Below are positions 501 to 12,933 of a DNA stretch of 32,070 nt, one piece after another; positions within the stretch are counted from its first letter, which is position 1, and each line of letters opens with the position of its first letter. This DNA is from Candidatus Krumholzibacteriia bacterium (GTDB taxonomy: Bacteria > Krumholzibacteriota > Krumholzibacteriia > LZORAL124-64-63): positions 1 through 32,070 of the forward strand of contig JADGEP010000002.1 of assembly GCA_016744275.1 (NCBI GenBank). Reading direction: 5' to 3'. The translations under genes and the position numbers were made by a program. A model generated the notes under the pieces. That model did no database searches and was not told the DNA's origin. It saw nothing but the letters and a program-made list of their open reading frames with translations.

Positions 501-1622
501 GTGCCAAATCCTGAAGGTGCATCTCATTCGACCGACCCGGTGGCCGCCTGCCCCGTTACTCGCCCAATTCCTTTTGTGCATCCGATTTACTATCCCAATG
601 ACGCGGGGGAGTCTTGGACCAGGGACAGCAATGGTGACAGTGTCAATGACCTGGAACGATGGACATTGCTGGCGGAACCGACTGTGCGTACAAGTGGGAG
701 CCCCTTTATCAAGCTGACGCCCGCTTCTCCGGTAAAAGTCGGAACCGATATACAGCTGTGTGTCACCTGCCGAAATTCGGGTTGCACCGATGCATATGTC
801 GGTTTCGCGACGATTCAACTTTGTGCAGTGGGAACTGAGCTGCCCTGGGATTTGATCACCGTTGCTGATTCCATTCCCATGCGCCGGGAATCTGGTGATG
901 TGATTTCATGGCCGGCCGAAGGTCAGGATCTTTTAGTTGAGGACCCGGTAGCGGGCTGCTCCGGATTGTTCACTTGGTACTACCGGTTTCATGCCAAAGA
1001 ATCGTATGAGGGTCACCGTTGCCTATTGGTGACAACTTGGGGGTTCCCCGGCACCGACGGCCCGATGCCCTATCCGGAAAATGGGCGCCCGCACCCAGTG
1101 AAAGACCGCCATGTCGGGCAGAGAAACATGACCTTTCTGCCACTGGATCGAACGGAACCAGGGTCGGACGAGGGCTTCAGAACGGACGCCTCCACTCGGG
1201 GATTGCTGCCCGGTGAGACAAGAACGGCCACTTTTCCTGAGGTGCCGTCGGGGCGAGGGGCTTTTGCTTTTTGGATCGGAAACCGCAGCGCCGAAGACAA
1301 TCGATATCGAATCGGCATGCGCTTGATCGGCCCTGCAAGCGCACAGGGCGAACTATTGGATGAAGACTGGAATGAAAAAAATGCTGCCGAGTCTTGGTTG
1401 GCCAGCGCTCGCCTTTTGGCGGTGGCGCCGAGTGGTGAAGGTGAAGTCAGCAGCTTTTCCATGGAAACAGCGGCGCTGAGTATGCAAGGAGGCGAGTTCA
1501 GGGCCGTTGGGCTTCAATACCGACTAGGTGATTTCGAGCGGCCCTTTTTGGTCGAAATCGAGCAGGTTCGTTTGGGGCCTGAAAATGAAGTGATCGGGGA
1601 GTTGCAGATATTGTTTGGTTAG
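501..1622 (+). CDS. hypothetical protein, 373 aa, no signal peptide
   Basis: GTG start at 501 preceded by GAGGAA (490-495) with a 5-nt spacer. Long ORF with coding-like composition. Contains a CVTCRNSGC cysteine cluster. I cannot assign a family. Confidence 0.6.
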   Translation: MPNPEGASHSTDPVAACPVTRPIPFVHPIYYPNDAGESWTRDSNGDSVNDLERWTLLAEPTVRTSGSPFIKLTPASPVKVGTDIQLCVTCRNSGCTDAYVGFATIQLCAVGTELPWDLITVADSIPMRRESGDVISWPAEGQDLLVEDPVAGCSGLFTWYYRFHAKESYEGHRCLLVTTWGFPGTDGPMPYPENGRPHPVKDRHVGQRNMTFLPLDRTEPGSDEGFRTDASTRGLLPGETRTATFPEVPSGRGAFAFWIGNRSAEDNRYRIGMRLIGPASAQGELLDEDWNEKNAAESWLASARLLAVAPSGEGEVSSFSMETAALSMQGGEFRAVGLQYRLGDFERPFLVEIEQVRLGPENEVIGELQILFG

Positions 1623-1689
1623 TCCCTGTTTCAGCCGCAACTAGAAGGCGCTGCCAAGTCACACTAGAACGGGTTTCGTTGCCCATTTC

Positions 1690-2307
1690 CTATTCCCCCG
1701 GATCAGTCACCCAACTCTCAATTCCCACAACGGTATCAGTCTGCGCCTCACAGATCTCAATGCAGCTCCCCACCTCACCTTTGCAAGCCACGACCTGGGC
1801 GACATAGGAACTCTTGTAGAATCGCGAAACGAGCTCAGAGATCTTATTCCACGAAAAAACGAAAGAAATAATAGCAACTGCGGGCAGGGAAAATAGCGCT
1901 GCGTCCCCAATTTTAAGTTCGAAAAACAACCCTCCCATGCCGATTTTTTGAAAGATTCCAATGACGCTTGGGGCCAGACCAATCAGCCCAAGGCCCACCA
2001 CCGCCGCAACCTTCCAATAGACCAGTCGCAATTCTTTGACAGTAACGGCGACAGCTATTTTGGATTGAGGTACTGCTGCCGGCCCGATGCGATAGAGAAG
2101 ACCAATTTCCATGGGGCCTTCGTTCTTGGGAAACTTGAACGTATTGCGGCCGGTTCGGTAGGGCCCATCAACTTCAATGTCGTCTCCAAAGAGGAATTCC
2201 ACGACCGCGGGCCTATTCTTCGCCGTAAGGCGCAGTGCCCTGTTCACGAAAACAGCATCACCCGGGTGGGCCTTTTTGGGCCAAGCCAGTCGCTCTACGT
2301 GGCACAT
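1690..2307 (-). CDS. small membrane protein: ~95-aa soluble N-domain, two hydrophobic helices, Cys-containing acidic C-tail
   Basis: ATG at 2307 preceded on the minus strand by AAGGAG with a 6-nt spacer, only 16 nt after the stop of the upstream NTPase gene. Hydrophobic segments are VYWKVAAVVGLGLIGLAPSVIGIF and AALFSLPAVAIISFVFSW. Confidence 0.7.
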   Translation of the reverse strand: MCHVERLAWPKKAHPGDAVFVNRALRLTAKNRPAVVEFLFGDDIEVDGPYRTGRNTFKFPKNEGPMEIGLLYRIGPAAVPQSKIAVAVTVKELRLVYWKVAAVVGLGLIGLAPSVIGIFQKIGMGGLFFELKIGDAALFSLPAVAIISFVFSWNKISELVSRFYKSSYVAQVVACKGEVGSCIEICEAQTDTVVGIESWVTDPGE

Positions 2308-2322
2308 GTGAGCTCCTTTATA

Positions 2323-4101
2323 TCAGTCGATTATTGCAATGTCGTCTTCTTCTGGGCTGTGATAGACAACACCGGCCGGGTAGTTGGATGGAACGGTTCT
2401 GATCGAATCCGACAAGAGTGGGTGCATTGCACAAACACTCTTTTCATTGGGCTCAAGAAACCCGGGAACGTTGTATTCGAAATCAGTCATGTAATAGCGC
2501 TTTTGATTGCCTTCGGGTTCTTCCCATTCGTGAGCAGGGAGATTGACCACGCCCATCAGCCCGCTTCGCAGAAGCACCCGAATCATATCCTCCAGCAACA
2601 GGTCCTTTCGGCTCCCTTCGTAGCGGCTATAGACCCTTTTCATGCATTCCCTGAGTGCTGGGTAGTGGATGATTTTTGGCTCGTTTTCCATGACATGACG
2701 AATCAAATCAGAAAGATTAGTCGCCCACCTCAAGCCTGGCGGGATCCCAAATACGGCGAGGCTGTCCGTCATCAATTGCATCAGGTTTCCGGTGGAATGA
2801 AGCCCAGTGACAATGGCGGACTCAGAGAGAATAGGAAGCGCCGAGTCTTCCAGCATGCACTGAACGATGTAGTTCATGCTGCTCAGGATCTCTCGGGGGC
2901 GTTTTTGGGTATGACGAATGAGGTAAGCTGCTGAATCTTCATTCCATCCGAGCAGATTCGTGATCTCGGGTACAGCAAACAATTGCCACACGTGATCCCG
3001 GTACACCTTGTTGCCCAGCAACTTCTCTTGTTTGATTCTTGAAACCGTTTCCCGTACGCGGTGTCCCAATTCAAGGGCATGGGGGATGTCTTGCCCCTTT
3101 TTGAGAAGAAATCCTGAATACCGCAGGGCGATAAACTCGATCAATTCGGAGTAGTGCCAATCCAGGGTGACCGTCTGGGCGCGATACTTCATTTCTTTTT
3201 CAAGGAAGACGTACGGGGTCAATTCAGCGGGAAGGAAACACTTCAGGTGAACATTCGGCCCGCCGACCTCCTTTTCGTGAAAACGCGACACTGCTCGACA
3301 TAGCCCACGGTAAGGAGCAAGCTGAATCTCATCCGGGGCGTACCGTTCTCTGGTATCAATCGAAATAAACAGGCTGTTGTCGCGCATGATATCCGTTGTC
3401 AGCGACCAGATTCTTTGTGGCGTTCCTTCTTCTATCAAGCCCTGAAGGCGACCGGAAAATACGACCAAGGCATTGGGGCCCGCCGTACAGGCCAGCAGCT
3501 CGTTCATGATTCTATCGTAGGCAATACGGGGTGGTTCTTGAATTGCTCCATTGCCATCTTCGAGGAAAGACTTGATGGGTTCCAGGGTCTCGGCCGGCGT
3601 GCCGTCTTCTTGGGCAATTTTGTATGCGGAACTTGTCACACAGATATTTATCAAATATGACCATATCCGATCATATATGTTGATGACGTTTGCGACTGGC
3701 AGCGTAAAGCCACCGTTCAGAGAAATGATGGACGTCAACAGTTGATCGTGTAAGTCGCGGTAGTATTCTTCTCGGAGGTAGATCGTGCTGCGAAACCCAC
3801 CTCTCTGGGCCATCCAATATGAGACAGCAGACTTTCCTGCACCGCGTCGACCACATACGAACGGATAATCCGTTGTCATGGCCAGCTTGTTCTTCTCAGT
3901 TGTGACAAAATTTGCGAGAAGAAACGTCGATTTTTCATGGTTCGAATCCGAACTCAAATTCCCAAGATGAGGAACCATATCTTTGGCATCGCGCATTCGT
4001 CCCCGCATAGTCTCTCCAGTCATGTTTTGCGGGTGCAAATATACAGCTTTTCGTAGGGCTATGTTGCTGACCCAATGGGTCCGGTGTCCCAGTTCCTGCA
4101 T
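2323..4101 (-). CDS. P-loop NTPase of unassigned family, 592 aa
   Basis: Walker A GRRGAGKS is encoded at 3829-3852 on the minus strand. A candidate Walker B-like strand LFISID lies ~165 residues downstream. The ~330-aa C-terminal region matches no family I know. It is the only long ORF over this span. Confidence 0.8.
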   Translation of the reverse strand: MQELGHRTHWVSNIALRKAVYLHPQNMTGETMRGRMRDAKDMVPHLGNLSSDSNHEKSTFLLANFVTTEKNKLAMTTDYPFVCGRRGAGKSAVSYWMAQRGGFRSTIYLREEYYRDLHDQLLTSIISLNGGFTLPVANVINIYDRIWSYLINICVTSSAYKIAQEDGTPAETLEPIKSFLEDGNGAIQEPPRIAYDRIMNELLACTAGPNALVVFSGRLQGLIEEGTPQRIWSLTTDIMRDNSLFISIDTRERYAPDEIQLAPYRGLCRAVSRFHEKEVGGPNVHLKCFLPAELTPYVFLEKEMKYRAQTVTLDWHYSELIEFIALRYSGFLLKKGQDIPHALELGHRVRETVSRIKQEKLLGNKVYRDHVWQLFAVPEITNLLGWNEDSAAYLIRHTQKRPREILSSMNYIVQCMLEDSALPILSESAIVTGLHSTGNLMQLMTDSLAVFGIPPGLRWATNLSDLIRHVMENEPKIIHYPALRECMKRVYSRYEGSRKDLLLEDMIRVLLRSGLMGVVNLPAHEWEEPEGNQKRYYMTDFEYNVPGFLEPNEKSVCAMHPLLSDSIRTVPSNYPAGVVYHSPEEDDIAIID

Positions 4102-4229
4102 TTGTCGCAGCGGTTTGGGAAATTACAAAAAGAGAAACTGTATTTTGCGCCCTAAAACGGTCTTGCTACTGGGTGTGTTTATAAATATGCAATTCAAAGC
4201 AGCGCCCTCTATAGGCTAATCATGGAGAC

Positions 4230-4238
4230 ATTGTACCA
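4230..4238 (-). promoter_or_regulatory. possible extended -10 element (TGgTACAAT) upstream of the NTPase operon
   Basis: The minus strand reads TGGTACAAT ~130 nt upstream of the ATG at 4101, inside an A+T-rich 195-bp intergenic region. I found no convincing -35. The promoter consensus for this lineage is unknown. Confidence 0.25.
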
Positions 4239-4296
4239 TGTTATCGCGCTGTTTTTTTAGAAAATTCGATTCTCAACCGACAATCTTGAATCAATC

Positions 4297-5379
4297 TCAA
4301 CGATCTTCCTTCTCACCAGCCCCCCAAACCTCGCCAACGGTCTGACAAAGAGCCGCCGCATCCTCCGCAAATCCCCCCTCAATAGAACTCTTGCGAGCCA
4401 ACCCATCCATCACAACCGGATAAAGCACCCGCGCCATCAAATCAATCTTCCGATCCCCATACCAAGGACGACTCCACTTGAACCGCTTCGGTTCAAACCG
4501 CCGCCTGAACTCCACATTGCCCAAAACCGCAGCCAGAGGCTCCTCCAACACATCCAACCGACCAACTGACCGCCACGTATCCGGACAAGCAGCCAATACC
4601 ACGTCACTAACCAAACGCTTCTGCTCAGGGGACTGCATCGCCGAAATCACATGCACAGCTTCGTGAACAACAACATCGGCATTGGACATCGTTTCACCTT
4701 CATACGGCCGCACACGCAACAGAAGGTAGGGGCCATTCGGATTCGCAACAATGCGGTCTGCATCGGGCCACCACACGTACAGAGCCGTGAACGTCGTGCT
4801 ATCAGAAACACCAAAAAACCCAGAAATTTCATTCAAATAAGAACCAACACCCTCGGCCTCGAGAACCTGGCGAGTCCGTTCCAGTGATGACGCCACCAAG
4901 GGCTCGGTCGAGCCGGTAATCCGTTCCATCCGATCAGAAAAATGCGCGTAGAATGAGCGCAGGAAATCGACCTCGTCCGGATCGACAATTTGCTGCAACC
5001 GCTGGAACGATTCTTCCAAGGTTGCCGAGCCGTAGAACGCATAGGCAACGGGATCCGCATTCAACACCGCCCTGTCGGTGAACAAGCCACTCCGGTTCGC
5101 CGTGGGGCTGTCGTTTTCCTGGCCTGTCTTGTCATAGTAGCGGTTGCGAATTTGAGCGTACTCTGCAAACAACAGCGAATCCGCCGGTGCGATTTCGAAC
5201 GAATCAACCCATGCCTCTCGGTAGGCCAATTCCGTATAACCTGGCCACCATTGGCTGACGTTGTCCATCAATTCGAAGGCATCGGCGGACCGGCTATAAC
5301 GCACCTCAATTTGCACACCGGCAGCCGCCAGGTTGAACATGAATGCCACCGTGATGAATGTCAGAATCGCAAGGCGCAT
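4297..5379 (-). CDS. secreted HExxH-motif protein (putative zinc metallopeptidase-like)
   Basis: The preferred start is the ATG at 5379, with GGAGA 7 nt upstream on the minus strand, giving the signal-peptide-like N-terminus MRLAILTFITVAFMFNLAAAG. The track ORF starts 11 codons earlier, at 5412. The HEAVH motif is encoded at 4651-4665. Confidence 0.7.
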   Translation of the reverse strand: MRLAILTFITVAFMFNLAAAGVQIEVRYSRSADAFELMDNVSQWWPGYTELAYREAWVDSFEIAPADSLLFAEYAQIRNRYYDKTGQENDSPTANRSGLFTDRAVLNADPVAYAFYGSATLEESFQRLQQIVDPDEVDFLRSFYAHFSDRMERITGSTEPLVASSLERTRQVLEAEGVGSYLNEISGFFGVSDSTTFTALYVWWPDADRIVANPNGPYLLLRVRPYEGETMSNADVVVHEAVHVISAMQSPEQKRLVSDVVLAACPDTWRSVGRLDVLEEPLAAVLGNVEFRRRFEPKRFKWSRPWYGDRKIDLMARVLYPVVMDGLARKSSIEGGFAEDAAALCQTVGEVWGAGEKEDR

Positions 5380-5505
5380 CAAGATTTCTCCGTGATTAAA
5401 TCGAAATTGCACGCCCGTTTTCGGCGCAGGTCTATACTACAGCCACTGTACTCTTTCTCAGAAATCCGACAAGAAAATAGAGGGCTTCGGGGCATCTGCC
5501 CCCTT

Positions 5506-5565
5506 CGAATAAAAAAACCGGGTGATCGAATAAAAAAACCGGGTGATCGAATAAAAAACCGGGGG
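5506..5565. repeat. 21-bp tandem direct repeat, about 2.7 copies (CGAATAAAAAAACCGGGTGAT)
   Basis: Read directly from the sequence. There are two perfect 21-nt units, then a third that diverges after AAAAAACCGGGGG. Each unit carries an A6-7 tract. The repeat sits in the 285-bp divergent intergenic region between the HExxH gene and the LVIVD gene. Confidence 0.9.
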
Positions 5566-5664
5566 AGATTTTCATTCCCTCAAAACATCCCTAAGACCAG
5601 GAGTTCCGACGACACCCATTCCGGTACGCTCCTTCACCGCCACTGTCAATGCATTGGAGCCGCC

Positions 5665-9256: not shown

Positions 9257-10141
9257 ATGGCCAGAGGCATCCAACGCCGCGCGATGGTCTTTGTCGACTA
9301 CAGCGCCTTGCGTGCATCCCTGAAAAAAGACTTCCGCACCCCGGGCACGCGCTGGGTCGATCCCAATTCAGAGCTGGATTACGAAAAACTGGGCCGCTGG
9401 CTGTGCGGCGACCAAAGCGAATTCATCCGGCTCAACCTGTACACCGGCACGCCCGTGACGATCACCGAAACCGAAAACGGCAGCACCCTGGGGCGCATCG
9501 AATTGCATGACCACGAGGCGTTTTTGGCGCGGGGGGTCAGCCGGGGTTTCAAGGACCTGGAATACAACGTGAACAACAATTCGCGGTACACGCGCCTGGC
9601 CACCGGCCGCATGATGGCGCGCCGGGTTGAGTTGCGCCATGGCGAGGCCTTTGCCTGGGCCCAGGCTGTGTTGGAAGAATGTGGAGAGGGCGGCATGTCC
9701 GCAGCCGATCAGGAGTTCTTCACCGAAGCTGCCGAAATCAACCAGGAAGCCAAAGACGCTCGCGATGACCTCTGCCGCCGCATCATCGCGTTGAAAGAAG
9801 AAGGCCGCATCCCCAAGGAAAAAATGGGATCCTACTCGCGGCGCCTGGCCCAGCTGTTGGGTGAACAACTCGATTTCACCGAGAAGGGTGTCGATACCAA
9901 GCTCACCGTCGAGATGCTCGAGTTGTGCATGAACGATTCCTACGACGACGCCATCCTCTTTGCCGCCGACGAAGACTACGTGCCCCTGGTCGAGGCCGTT
10001 AAAAAAACCGGCCGCCACGTGATCCAGGCCTTTTGGGATATTCCCAACCCCGGTTGGGTGCTGCGCCAGGCCTGCGATGACTCGGTGGTTGTGCCGAGAG
10101 ATGTTCTGCCCAGTCTGTTGTTCCGGAATGAAGGGAGTTAG
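9257..10141 (+). CDS. NYN-domain (LabA/DUF88-like, PIN-like fold) protein with extended middle region
   Basis: The N-terminal strand is AMVFVDYSAL. The central motif EKGVDTKLTVEML and the C-terminal DDAILFAADEDYVPLVEAVKKTGRHV (nt 9960-9998 region) match the NYN signature (xFxDxxN ... GxD ... sgDsDfxPlv...G). Confidence 0.75.
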   Translation: MARGIQRRAMVFVDYSALRASLKKDFRTPGTRWVDPNSELDYEKLGRWLCGDQSEFIRLNLYTGTPVTITETENGSTLGRIELHDHEAFLARGVSRGFKDLEYNVNNNSRYTRLATGRMMARRVELRHGEAFAWAQAVLEECGEGGMSAADQEFFTEAAEINQEAKDARDDLCRRIIALKEEGRIPKEKMGSYSRRLAQLLGEQLDFTEKGVDTKLTVEMLELCMNDSYDDAILFAADEDYVPLVEAVKKTGRHVIQAFWDIPNPGWVLRQACDDSVVVPRDVLPSLLFRNEGS

Positions 10142-11739: not shown

Positions 11740-12381
11740 CTAAGGTTGCTCTACCTCGCCAAGCTTGCGAATGTCGTAGTTGCCGTACATCTGATGAACC
11801 AGGTCATCACCGAGATTGCGCAAAGCACTCTCCACCGACGTTGAATATTCACTTTTTCCTGTCGTCAACGCTCCCATTCCTTTACTCGATACACCCATTC
11901 CTGATCCCTGAACCGCCGAAACTTGAACCATCTCAAGATTGTAAAAGGTCATTTGCACAGATACCTGAGTGTTGCCAGAGGCACTGTCTTGAAAGAATCC
12001 TTCTTTTCTATTCAGCGATACTCCAGCGGCTGTGATTTTTGGGATGGCTACAATGTCCAAGTTGCGTTCGTCTATCATTTGCTGAGTTGGGTAGGAATCG
12101 AGTATCTCCGTTTTTTGGAAAACGCGTTGCACTGATTTTGTAACGATAGAATGGGTTGCCTCGCCAATGTTAAAAGAGTACTTGTGAGCCCAGTCTGCAT
12201 TGTCTTCGATTACGAAGGTCTTCAACTCCTCTGGAACATACAGGCCCACGCTTACTGGAACCTTGTTGGCAATATTCGCAGTGGGGTCAATGTTGGGGTC
12301 GAGTTTCACCGCGTAAGAGCAGCCACCCAGTGATGCCAAGCCTATGGATAGGCAAATTCCCAGATACAACAATCGCTTCAT
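11740..12381 (-). CDS. lipoprotein of unknown function, 213 aa
   Basis: GGAGG RBS on the minus strand. Signal peptide with lipobox: MKRLLYLGICLSIGLASLGG-C. The gene is visibly more A+T-rich than its flanks. Confidence 0.75.
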   Translation of the reverse strand: MKRLLYLGICLSIGLASLGGCSYAVKLDPNIDPTANIANKVPVSVGLYVPEELKTFVIEDNADWAHKYSFNIGEATHSIVTKSVQRVFQKTEILDSYPTQQMIDERNLDIVAIPKITAAGVSLNRKEGFFQDSASGNTQVSVQMTFYNLEMVQVSAVQGSGMGVSSKGMGALTTGKSEYSTSVESALRNLGDDLVHQMYGNYDIRKLGEVEQP

Positions 12382-12933
12382 TTCTTGCCTCCGGTATAAT
12401 TATAAAAGACAAATAAACTGCTGATTAACTTACGTTTAGGTCAGCTAGCAGATTGTATCTTAAGCCCGTTGAATTTGTAAGCGCATTCTCAATGACTTCG
12501 GATATCATGTCAGATTTTAAAGAACCGACCGATGACTTGAATAGAAGGTTGTGCCTCGAAGATTGTGTTTTTTGAAAAATTCGTAGAATGCGGGTTGTAT
12601 TGAAGTTAAATAGATTCCGGAGGAAAGACGGATGTGAACAGCACTTTTTTCTGAGTGCGCCATATTGGATTGAGTCCCGCGAACCATGTCAGGATGTCGC
12701 TCCTGGCGCACATGCTGCCCGTATTTGGAGCGTCGTTGATACACCTCAGAAACCGGTACCCTTGGGCAACCATTGCTTCTGCTCTGGCTTGATATGCGCC
12801 ATTGATGTGCTATGCTAATACCCCGGAACGGGTTCGCACCACCCGACCAGAACCGGGCCAGCCCGCATGCTAACTTGCGCCCTACACGTCGACTACAACC
12901 ATTGCACCAGACTCAATCTCCGAGGCACAACCG

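Follow-up and report, generated by a model that had tools for sequence, protein, structure and literature searches.

A divergent Sll1717-family ATPase and its paired membrane-hairpin protein in a Krumholzibacteriia genome: a candidate two-gene abortive-infection module

The first 32,070 nucleotides (nt) of contig JADGEP010000002.1 (forward strand; assembly GCA_016744275.1, Candidatus Krumholzibacteriia bacterium), hereafter the window, carry two adjacent open reading frames (ORFs) on the minus strand, encoding a P-loop ATPase (maximal ORF 2323..4101, 592 amino acids (aa)) and a small membrane protein, hereafter the partner (1690..2307, 205 aa). An initial annotation, made from the nucleotide sequence without database searches, had described them as a translationally coupled pair and had proposed that they form an undescribed defence or abortive-infection module. 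The coupled arrangement was confirmed: the TGA stop of the ATPase gene (2325-2323) is followed by a 15-nt junction (2308..2322) holding AAGGAG (2318-2313) and then by the ATG of the partner gene (2307-2305). The 592-aa ORF exists as the maximal reading frame; however, the protein probably starts at Met32 (ATG 4008-4006) and is 561 aa long (gene 2323..4008), because the database gene call gives 561 aa, all the homologues measure 545-565 aa, and a GGAGAG Shine-Dalgarno sequence (4017-4012) lies five bases before this ATG. No Shine-Dalgarno sequence accompanies the ATG at 4101. Residue numbers of the ATPase below follow the 561-aa numbering unless the ORF is named. Judged from their homologues in other metagenomes, which are under clear sequence constraint, both genes are real.

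The ATPase gene is preceded by an AT-rich leader (4009..4296, minus strand; 43% GC, and 39.5% for 4102-4296) that contains an extended -10-like sequence, TGGTACAAT, at 4238-4230, where a promoter is plausible. The A+T-rich composition and the -10-like element noted in the initial annotation are thus both present, although a two-hexamer promoter scan of the leader made no call, as there is no -35 element there. The minus-strand segment 4005-4230 (~220 nt) has a predicted minimum free energy of -63.7 kcal/mol, compared with -51.3 +/- 4.1 kcal/mol for shuffled sequences (z=-3.0), and the predicted structure pairs the 5' end of the segment (UGUCUCCA) with the region around the Met32 Shine-Dalgarno sequence (UGGAGAGA). 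This pairing hints that translation of the ATPase may be controlled through the leader. The leader matched no Rfam family. The pair had also been placed in a compositionally distinct segment, and this was borne out: the GC content at third codon positions (GC3) is 0.57-0.60 in the four genes at 501-5412, versus 0.69-0.81 for most other genes of the window. Neither a tRNA nor flanking direct repeats marking an island boundary were found in the window, and the left boundary may lie outside it.

The ATPase matches the NCBIfam model NF047389 (P-loop ATPase, Sll1717 family) with 71.7-72.0 bits (E=6e-20 to 5e-20; cutoff 75), and the match is colinear and full length, covering residues 52-563 of the 592-aa ORF and profile positions 5-450 of 454. 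A word-indexed search of 5.8 billion proteins recovered 14 full-length homologues with 29-38% identity. An alignment of close homologues (A1, 15 sequences) was the basis of an exhaustive search with a profile hidden Markov model (HMM), which yielded 1,631 representatives (50% clustering, E<=1e-3), 250 of them at E<=1e-30 and nearly all full length (510-600 aa); the close clade of the window ATPase accounts for ~30 clusters at 50% identity. Wider relatives, collected with the clade's own HMM, all matched NF047389 where sampled (55/55, best E=3.5e-58). On the basis of these matches and its own full-length match, the ATPase is placed in the large Sll1717 family as a member of a divergent sub-clade. 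This family is catalogued and functionally uncharacterised, and no paper on it was found in the literature. The protein is therefore not the founder of a new family, as had been considered in the initial annotation, and its C-terminal region of ~330 aa, which had been regarded as unplaceable, is spanned by the NF047389 match and modelled as lid and winged-helix-like domains.

Other profile libraries gave little. Pfam contained no match for the ATPase, the partner or the two flanking orphan genes, and a PDB sequence-profile search of the ATPase returned chance hemagglutinin matches only (E>0.05). Homologues of the ATPase showed sub-threshold Pfam matches to ORC-CDC6-like, nSTAND3, AAA_22, AAA_16 and NB-ARC, and the wider family weakly touches the PADLOC candidates PDC-M28C (best E=6e-9) and mad8. 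A tie to an experimentally supported system came from DS-41 (construct AAA2, WP_033812887.1, 502 aa), a single-gene system found with DefensePredictor that protects E. coli against several phages (PMC13092281). Its model NF053860 (DS41_1_antiphage) was matched by 34 of the 55 wider-family members (best E=1.6e-12), and hhalign of the wider-family profile against DS-41, using the 399 of 502 residues printed in the supplement of PMC13092281, gave 93.7% probability (E=1.9e-7) over a stretch that runs from Walker B on and takes in the lid and a (K/R)xPRE motif. The window ATPase itself matches NF053860 in the P-loop only, with 16.8 bits against a cutoff of 370, which places it outside that equivalog. 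By these comparisons DS-41 is a remote relative of the family and not the same system.

The catalytic motifs of the ATPase are intact (all on the minus strand). The Walker A/P-loop sequence GRRGAGKS (residues 53-60) lies at 3829..3852, exactly where it had been annotated; G53, R54, G56, G58 and K59 are invariant in the 15 homologues, and G53, G56, G58 and K59 also in 110 wider relatives. The putative Walker B strand that had been pointed out unusually far downstream is likewise upheld: LFISIDTRE (residues 213-221; 3346..3372) lies 159 residues past the Walker A lysine, forms a strand at 213-218 in the structure model, is aligned by hhalign to VLIDKLDE of DS-41, and has I217, D218 and E221 invariant in the 15 sequences. 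The most conserved signature of the family is RHTQKRPRE (residues 365-373; 2890..2916), which is invariant in A1, retains H366, T367, P371 and R372 in >=90% of the wider family, matches KSPRE of DS-41, and probably corresponds to the part of the lid that holds the sensor-2 arginine. The full set of family-invariant motifs reads FVCGRxGxGKS (Walker A), hhhIDTxExY (Walker B; D218, E221), KCFLPAE, RHTQKRPRE, LRSGLxG, FEY and HPxLxD. In the alignments and the model, K274 is near-invariant, and R296, in the first lid helix, is invariant.

An AlphaFold2 model of the ATPase, also built on A1, reached a predicted local distance difference test score (pLDDT) of 88.6 and a predicted template-modelling score of 0.88. 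In its core, six helices (80-208, ~130 aa) are inserted between strand 2 (74-78) and the Walker B strand, and this insert accounts for the unusual spacing of the two Walker motifs. Helices 286-387 form a lid carrying RHTQKRPRE, and the C-terminus consists of a helix-helix-beta-beta unit (449-510) and further strands. The hallmarks of the ORC/Cdc6 clade include an insertion past strand 2 and a helical bundle that leads into a winged helix-turn-helix (PMC12839542). The model shows the corresponding features of these STAND-related proteins, namely a GxxxxGK[ST] Walker A, a Walker B acidic residue on strand 3, the strand-2 insert, the lid and a winged-helix-like unit; the insert is far larger than the canonical helix-extension-helix. 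The best Foldseek match in the PDB was the BrxC N-terminal ATPase (9zll_B, E=4.5e-4), and further matches included Aeropyrum ORC2 (1w5t, E=1.2e-3), SSO1545 (2fna_A, target template-modelling score (TM-score) 0.56), Cdc6, yeast and human ORC subunits, HslU and RdrA. The BrxC/ORC matches have low TM-scores (~0.3) and no counterpart among sequence-level PDB matches. Because the modelled features match the published hallmarks and the top Foldseek matches point the same way, the modelled ATPase fold is of the ORC/Cdc6 AAA+ type, with a lid and a winged-helix-like C-terminus, and the sub-threshold Pfam matches to ORC-CDC6-like, nSTAND3, AAA_22 and AAA_16 agree with it. The viral structure library BFVD gave no significant match. 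A KAP nucleoside triphosphatase (NTPase) assignment was rejected, as no transmembrane helices are inserted in the P-loop domain.

The partner comprises a predicted beta-rich N-terminal region of ~95 aa, a transmembrane hairpin and a tail of ~50 aa. The N-region carries a WPxxxxPGD motif, which reads [WY]PxxxxPG[DE] in the family alignment. By hydropathy, alignment and flanking charge, transmembrane helix 1 spans aa 97-118 (1954..2019, minus strand) and contains an invariant Pro113, and helix 2 spans aa 135-152 (1852..1905, minus strand), contains an invariant Pro142 and is followed by a basic W[KR][KR] patch; a loop of ~13 aa joins the two. The tail is variable and has a GxxxxxIxI strand. The anatomy described in the initial annotation, with a beta-rich N-region, two hydrophobic helices and an acidic, cysteine-containing tail, holds for the window copy, but the acidic and cysteine character of the tail is not kept across the family. 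Lysine and arginine residues number 2-5 before helix 1, 2-4 past helix 2 and 0-2 in the loop. By the positive-inside rule this pattern predicts an N-in/C-in hairpin, whose N-region and tail would share the cytoplasm with the ATPase. The partner had no match in the Pfam, NCBIfam or PADLOC profiles, and its family had to be assembled from synteny because the word-indexed protein search recovered almost no homologues. With no profile matches and no literature found, both the partner family and its pairing with the ATPase appear undescribed.

The co-conservation expected of a functional pair was found in other genomes. Each of the close-clade loci examined has a gene of ~200 aa immediately after the ATPase gene, and it is homologous to the window partner in 11 independent loci (the window, L001, L002, L003/4, L005/6, L008, L009/10, L011/13, L012/24/25, L022 and L023), always adjacent to or overlapping the ATPase gene. 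The junctions range from a 26-nt overlap to the 15-nt gap of the window, those of the homologous loci from -26 to +3 nt. A partner HMM built from seven sequences (six other loci and the window) matched independent partners outside the training set at E=1e-24 to 1e-61, the training sequences themselves scoring to 1e-83 by construction; pairwise blastp E-values between partners reach 1e-35. No flanking gene beyond the pair is common to independent loci, and the conserved unit is thus exactly two genes. The identity matrices of ATPase and partner are correlated (Pearson r=0.60, Mantel p ~2e-4), with mean pairwise identities of 36% for the ATPase and 24% for the partner; by these alignments the two genes co-diverge and the partner evolves faster.

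The close clade is sparse and patchy, with identities of 28-58%, hosts that include Tectimicrobiota and Armatimonadia, one locus in GTDB species genomes and four in JGI metagenome contigs. Taken over its known loci, the cassette is read as horizontally mobile. Two loci from different samples, L003 and L004, share an identical ATPase, the same partner and the same downstream 131-aa gene; upstream of the pair lies a Peptidase_S8 gene, which is intact in L004 and in L003 has insertion sequence (IS) and resolvase genes and TrfA at its flanks. This difference points to recent mobility or a plasmid location of the cassette.

The position downstream of the ATPase is not always filled by the membrane hairpin. 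In L014 and L015, where the ATPases are divergent (27-28% identity), the downstream gene encodes a soluble FRG-domain protein (Pfam E=3.4e-25; pairs at L014:9971-12475 and L015:1134-3568), with IS21 IstA/IstB copies on the flanks. The FRG domain belongs to the ART superfamily, and earlier work suggested that it serves as an antiviral effector and may be an NADase (PMC9503650). In L015 the ATPase is encoded in two pieces (ORFs 1134-2477 and 2360-2824), reflecting either a frameshifted pseudogene or an assembly error. In L007 the slot is occupied by an unrelated protein with two transmembrane helices and a coiled coil. A swapped downstream "effector slot" of this kind is typical of immune modules. 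Two distant Sll1717-like ATPases are single genes: P0016 (L019:3875-6478, 867 aa) has an N-terminal zinc ribbon and a Ser/Thr kinase, and P0017 (L016:6001-7743, 580 aa) has a double zinc ribbon fused at its N-terminus and lies among the housekeeping genes TilS and FtsH.

Defence-type and mobile genes recur around the pair. In L001, the pair comes directly after an AbiZ-like/DUF6161 gene (L001:1-1224; PADLOC E=6e-28, Pfam E=2.5e-88), and a MutS_V-domain gene (L001:5112-6425) is found ~1.5 kb downstream of it, so that this locus may be a small defence island. An HEC-01A/B candidate pair (AAA_15 and DUF4276) and a "GT4-conflict" glycosyltransferase are found near the pair in L005, HicAB in L008, an Xre/MqsA-like gene in L024/25 and an N6/N4 DNA methyltransferase in L013. 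TrfA, resolvase and IS240, IS200, ISL3 and IS21 transposases are neighbours in L003, L009 and L014.

Combined with the above analysis, we somewhat favour the view that the pair is a mobile sensor-effector conflict module, in which the ATPase is an ATP-dependent sensor or switch and the hairpin a membrane-disrupting abortive-infection effector. This view is drawn from an intact ORC/Cdc6-clade ATPase without an enzymatic effector domain that is strictly paired and translationally coupled with a membrane hairpin, from the replacement of the partner by a putative NADase-type effector in relatives together with the co-divergence of the two genes, from the scattered occurrence, unusual base composition and neighbours of mobile or defence type, and from the remote tie to DS-41 and the structural similarity to BrxC. 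The ATPase would be a minimal ORC/Cdc6-like switch, consisting of the P-loop core with its large insert, the lid with RHTQKRPRE and the winged-helix-like C-terminus. Its insert or winged-helix region could bind a cue of infection, with a phage protein or a nucleic acid as the probable candidates, and binding of the cue would change the nucleotide or oligomeric state of the ATPase. Translational coupling would supply the partner in fixed stoichiometry with the ATPase, and the activated ATPase would then engage the partner, which would oligomerise and permeabilise or depolarise the membrane. Such a breach would stop phage production at the cost of the cell. We infer from the features listed here that the module acts in defence, what triggers it, which way the signal runs and that the outcome is a disrupted membrane.

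Several points weigh against this proposal. No PADLOC v2 system model was matched by the window proteins, in keeping with the remark of the initial annotation that the pair fits no named system. No recognisable defence gene occurs among the window's own neighbours, which are orphans and secreted repeat proteins. Searches of 72,556 plasmids (tblastn with the window ATPase and two wider-family members) returned no homologue, and no relatives were found among the IMG/VR viral contigs. The neighbourhood census carries no background control, and its PADLOC matches to "DrmD" and "mad2" (two members each) were not counted as defence because they are probably duplicated IS21 IstB ATPases in L014. The AlphaFold2 model of the partner, built on a 3-sequence alignment, was unusable (pLDDT 48), and pore formation is thus conjecture. 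As for DS-41, the close-clade profile gives 36% probability only, and DS-41 is a single gene without a transmembrane partner whereas the window system has two genes. The module proposed in the initial annotation therefore keeps its paired genes, its atypical GC and, at other loci, its defence-type and mobile neighbours, while its function in defence has the conditional standing given above and no known defence gene adjoins the window pair.

The mobile surroundings would also suit an addiction or exclusion module of toxin-antitoxin-like behaviour, in which the hairpin is a toxin, the ATPase its regulator or antitoxin, and the benefit is stabilisation or protection of a carrier transposon, plasmid or island, with any phage effects possibly incidental. 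The pair often lies beside transposases, resolvase, TrfA and IS21/ISL3/IS200 elements, its two genes are tightly coupled in DNA of atypical GC, and toxin-antitoxin genes adjoin it in L008 and L024. However, an AAA+ ATPase of 560 aa whose Walker motifs are intact would make an unusually large and complex antitoxin, the FRG swap fits a sensor-effector logic better, and none of the sequenced plasmids held a match; we consider this explanation unlikely. We give a little more room, though still as a rather unlikely explanation, to a role outside conflict, with the pair serving as a membrane-tethered ORC/Cdc6-like complex for DNA or replicon handling or for envelope or stress signalling, and the two-helix protein as anchor or adaptor. 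An ORC/Cdc6-like fold with a winged-helix-like domain would fit such a role, the window is an ordinary chromosomal region, and distant members such as P0017 are single genes among housekeeping genes. Yet the homologues are extremely rare and scattered and share little identity from host to host, no neighbourhood is conserved beyond the pair, the partner can be replaced by an FRG domain, and the cassette is of atypical GC and associated with mobile elements, features that a housekeeping role would not lead one to expect.

The division of labour within a defence module might also be the reverse, the membrane protein detecting either the injection of phage DNA or a disturbed membrane and the ATPase executing the response, e.g., by binding or blocking DNA like ORC or BrxC. 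BrxC and ORC-type ATPases do act on DNA, and the higher conservation of the ATPase (36% vs 24%) would agree with the frequent observation that sensors evolve faster than executors. On the other hand, neither a nuclease nor any other effector domain can be recognised in the ATPase, and in L014/L015 the slot of the hairpin is taken by FRG, putatively an effector enzyme rather than a sensor in the membrane; we regard the reversed arrangement as quite improbable.

Returning to the sensor-effector module, a bolder proposal can be made, which we hold only tentatively. The pair would be an undescribed two-gene abortive-infection system, and the Sll1717 family (~1,600 clusters) a broad class of minimal ORC/Cdc6-like immune switches without a repeat-type sensor, driving interchangeable downstream or fused effectors (proline-kinked hairpin, FRG/ART NADase-like, kinase), with DS-41 as a single-gene offshoot. 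The sensor-effector module, if validated, would give a first function to the sizeable orphan ATPase family NF047389 and link that family to the recently validated DS-41. It would also provide a compact sensor-effector pair, in which an ORC-like ATPase of ~560 aa without obvious sensor repeats controls a membrane hairpin of ~200 aa, small enough to make tractable both the recognition of infection by ORC/Cdc6-type switches and the gating of a two-helix membrane protein.

Apart from the pair, the window holds orphan genes, LVIVD/FG-GAP secreted proteins, SelO, a beta-lactamase-fold protein and an NYN-domain protein. The orphans at 501-1622, 4297-5412 and 11740-12381 have low GC3 (0.52-0.60) and no Pfam match; the first two flank the pair, have no meaningful NCBIfam or PADLOC match and do not recur beside it in other loci, and a 40-nt imperfect inverted repeat (12547-12586 / 12893-12932) lies near the third. 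Between the orphan at 4297-5412 and an LVIVD-repeat gene, positions 5505-5567 contain three tandem copies of a 21-nt unit (TCGAATAAAAAAACCGGGTGA), the third 76% identical. The NYN-domain (PIN-like RNase fold) protein (9257-10141; Pfam E=1e-12) is encoded on the opposite strand ~5 kb from the pair, and a link to the module was not established. A PADLOC Cas10c match of a window protein (E=0.01 over 65 residues) was judged spurious.

Compared with known families and systems, the window ATPase belongs to the same size class as the Sll1717 family of NF047389 (510-600 aa) and has the same conserved motifs, differing in that it and its clade fall just under the curated cutoff (72 vs 75 bits) as a divergent sub-clade. 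It shares with DS-41 the Walker A motif, a long helical insert, Walker B (VLIDKLDE vs hhhhIDxxxE) and a lid with (K/R)xPRE. With the BrxC and ORC structures it shares a strand-2 insert, a helical lid and a subsequent winged-helix-like domain. BrxC, however, is a protein of 1,200-1,300 aa that works with PglX, PglZ, BrxA, BrxB and BrxL (PMC12839542), whereas the ATPase has 561 aa, and no PglZ, PglX or Brx genes occur in the window or the homologous loci. An AVAST/Avs-type STAND NTPase was also considered and rejected: the ATPase has neither an N-terminal effector nor a repeat array, and ends past the winged-helix-like and beta region.

In functional logic, the proposed module resembles two-component abortive-infection systems that combine a cytoplasmic sensor with a small membrane effector, such as RexA/RexB of phage lambda, the two-transmembrane-helix effectors of retrons and CBASS, and AbiZ. 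In these systems a small membrane protein, either multi-pass or a hairpin, depolarises the membrane once the soluble sensor has activated it, and infection is aborted. The pair has no sequence or profile similarity to any PADLOC model of such systems, and its sensor would be an ORC/Cdc6-like AAA+ ATPase. Immunity by an NTPase and a small membrane effector is already a well-populated kind of system. The pair is not a new kind and leaves this general picture unchanged; it is a reasonable and good candidate for experimental testing rather than a surprise.

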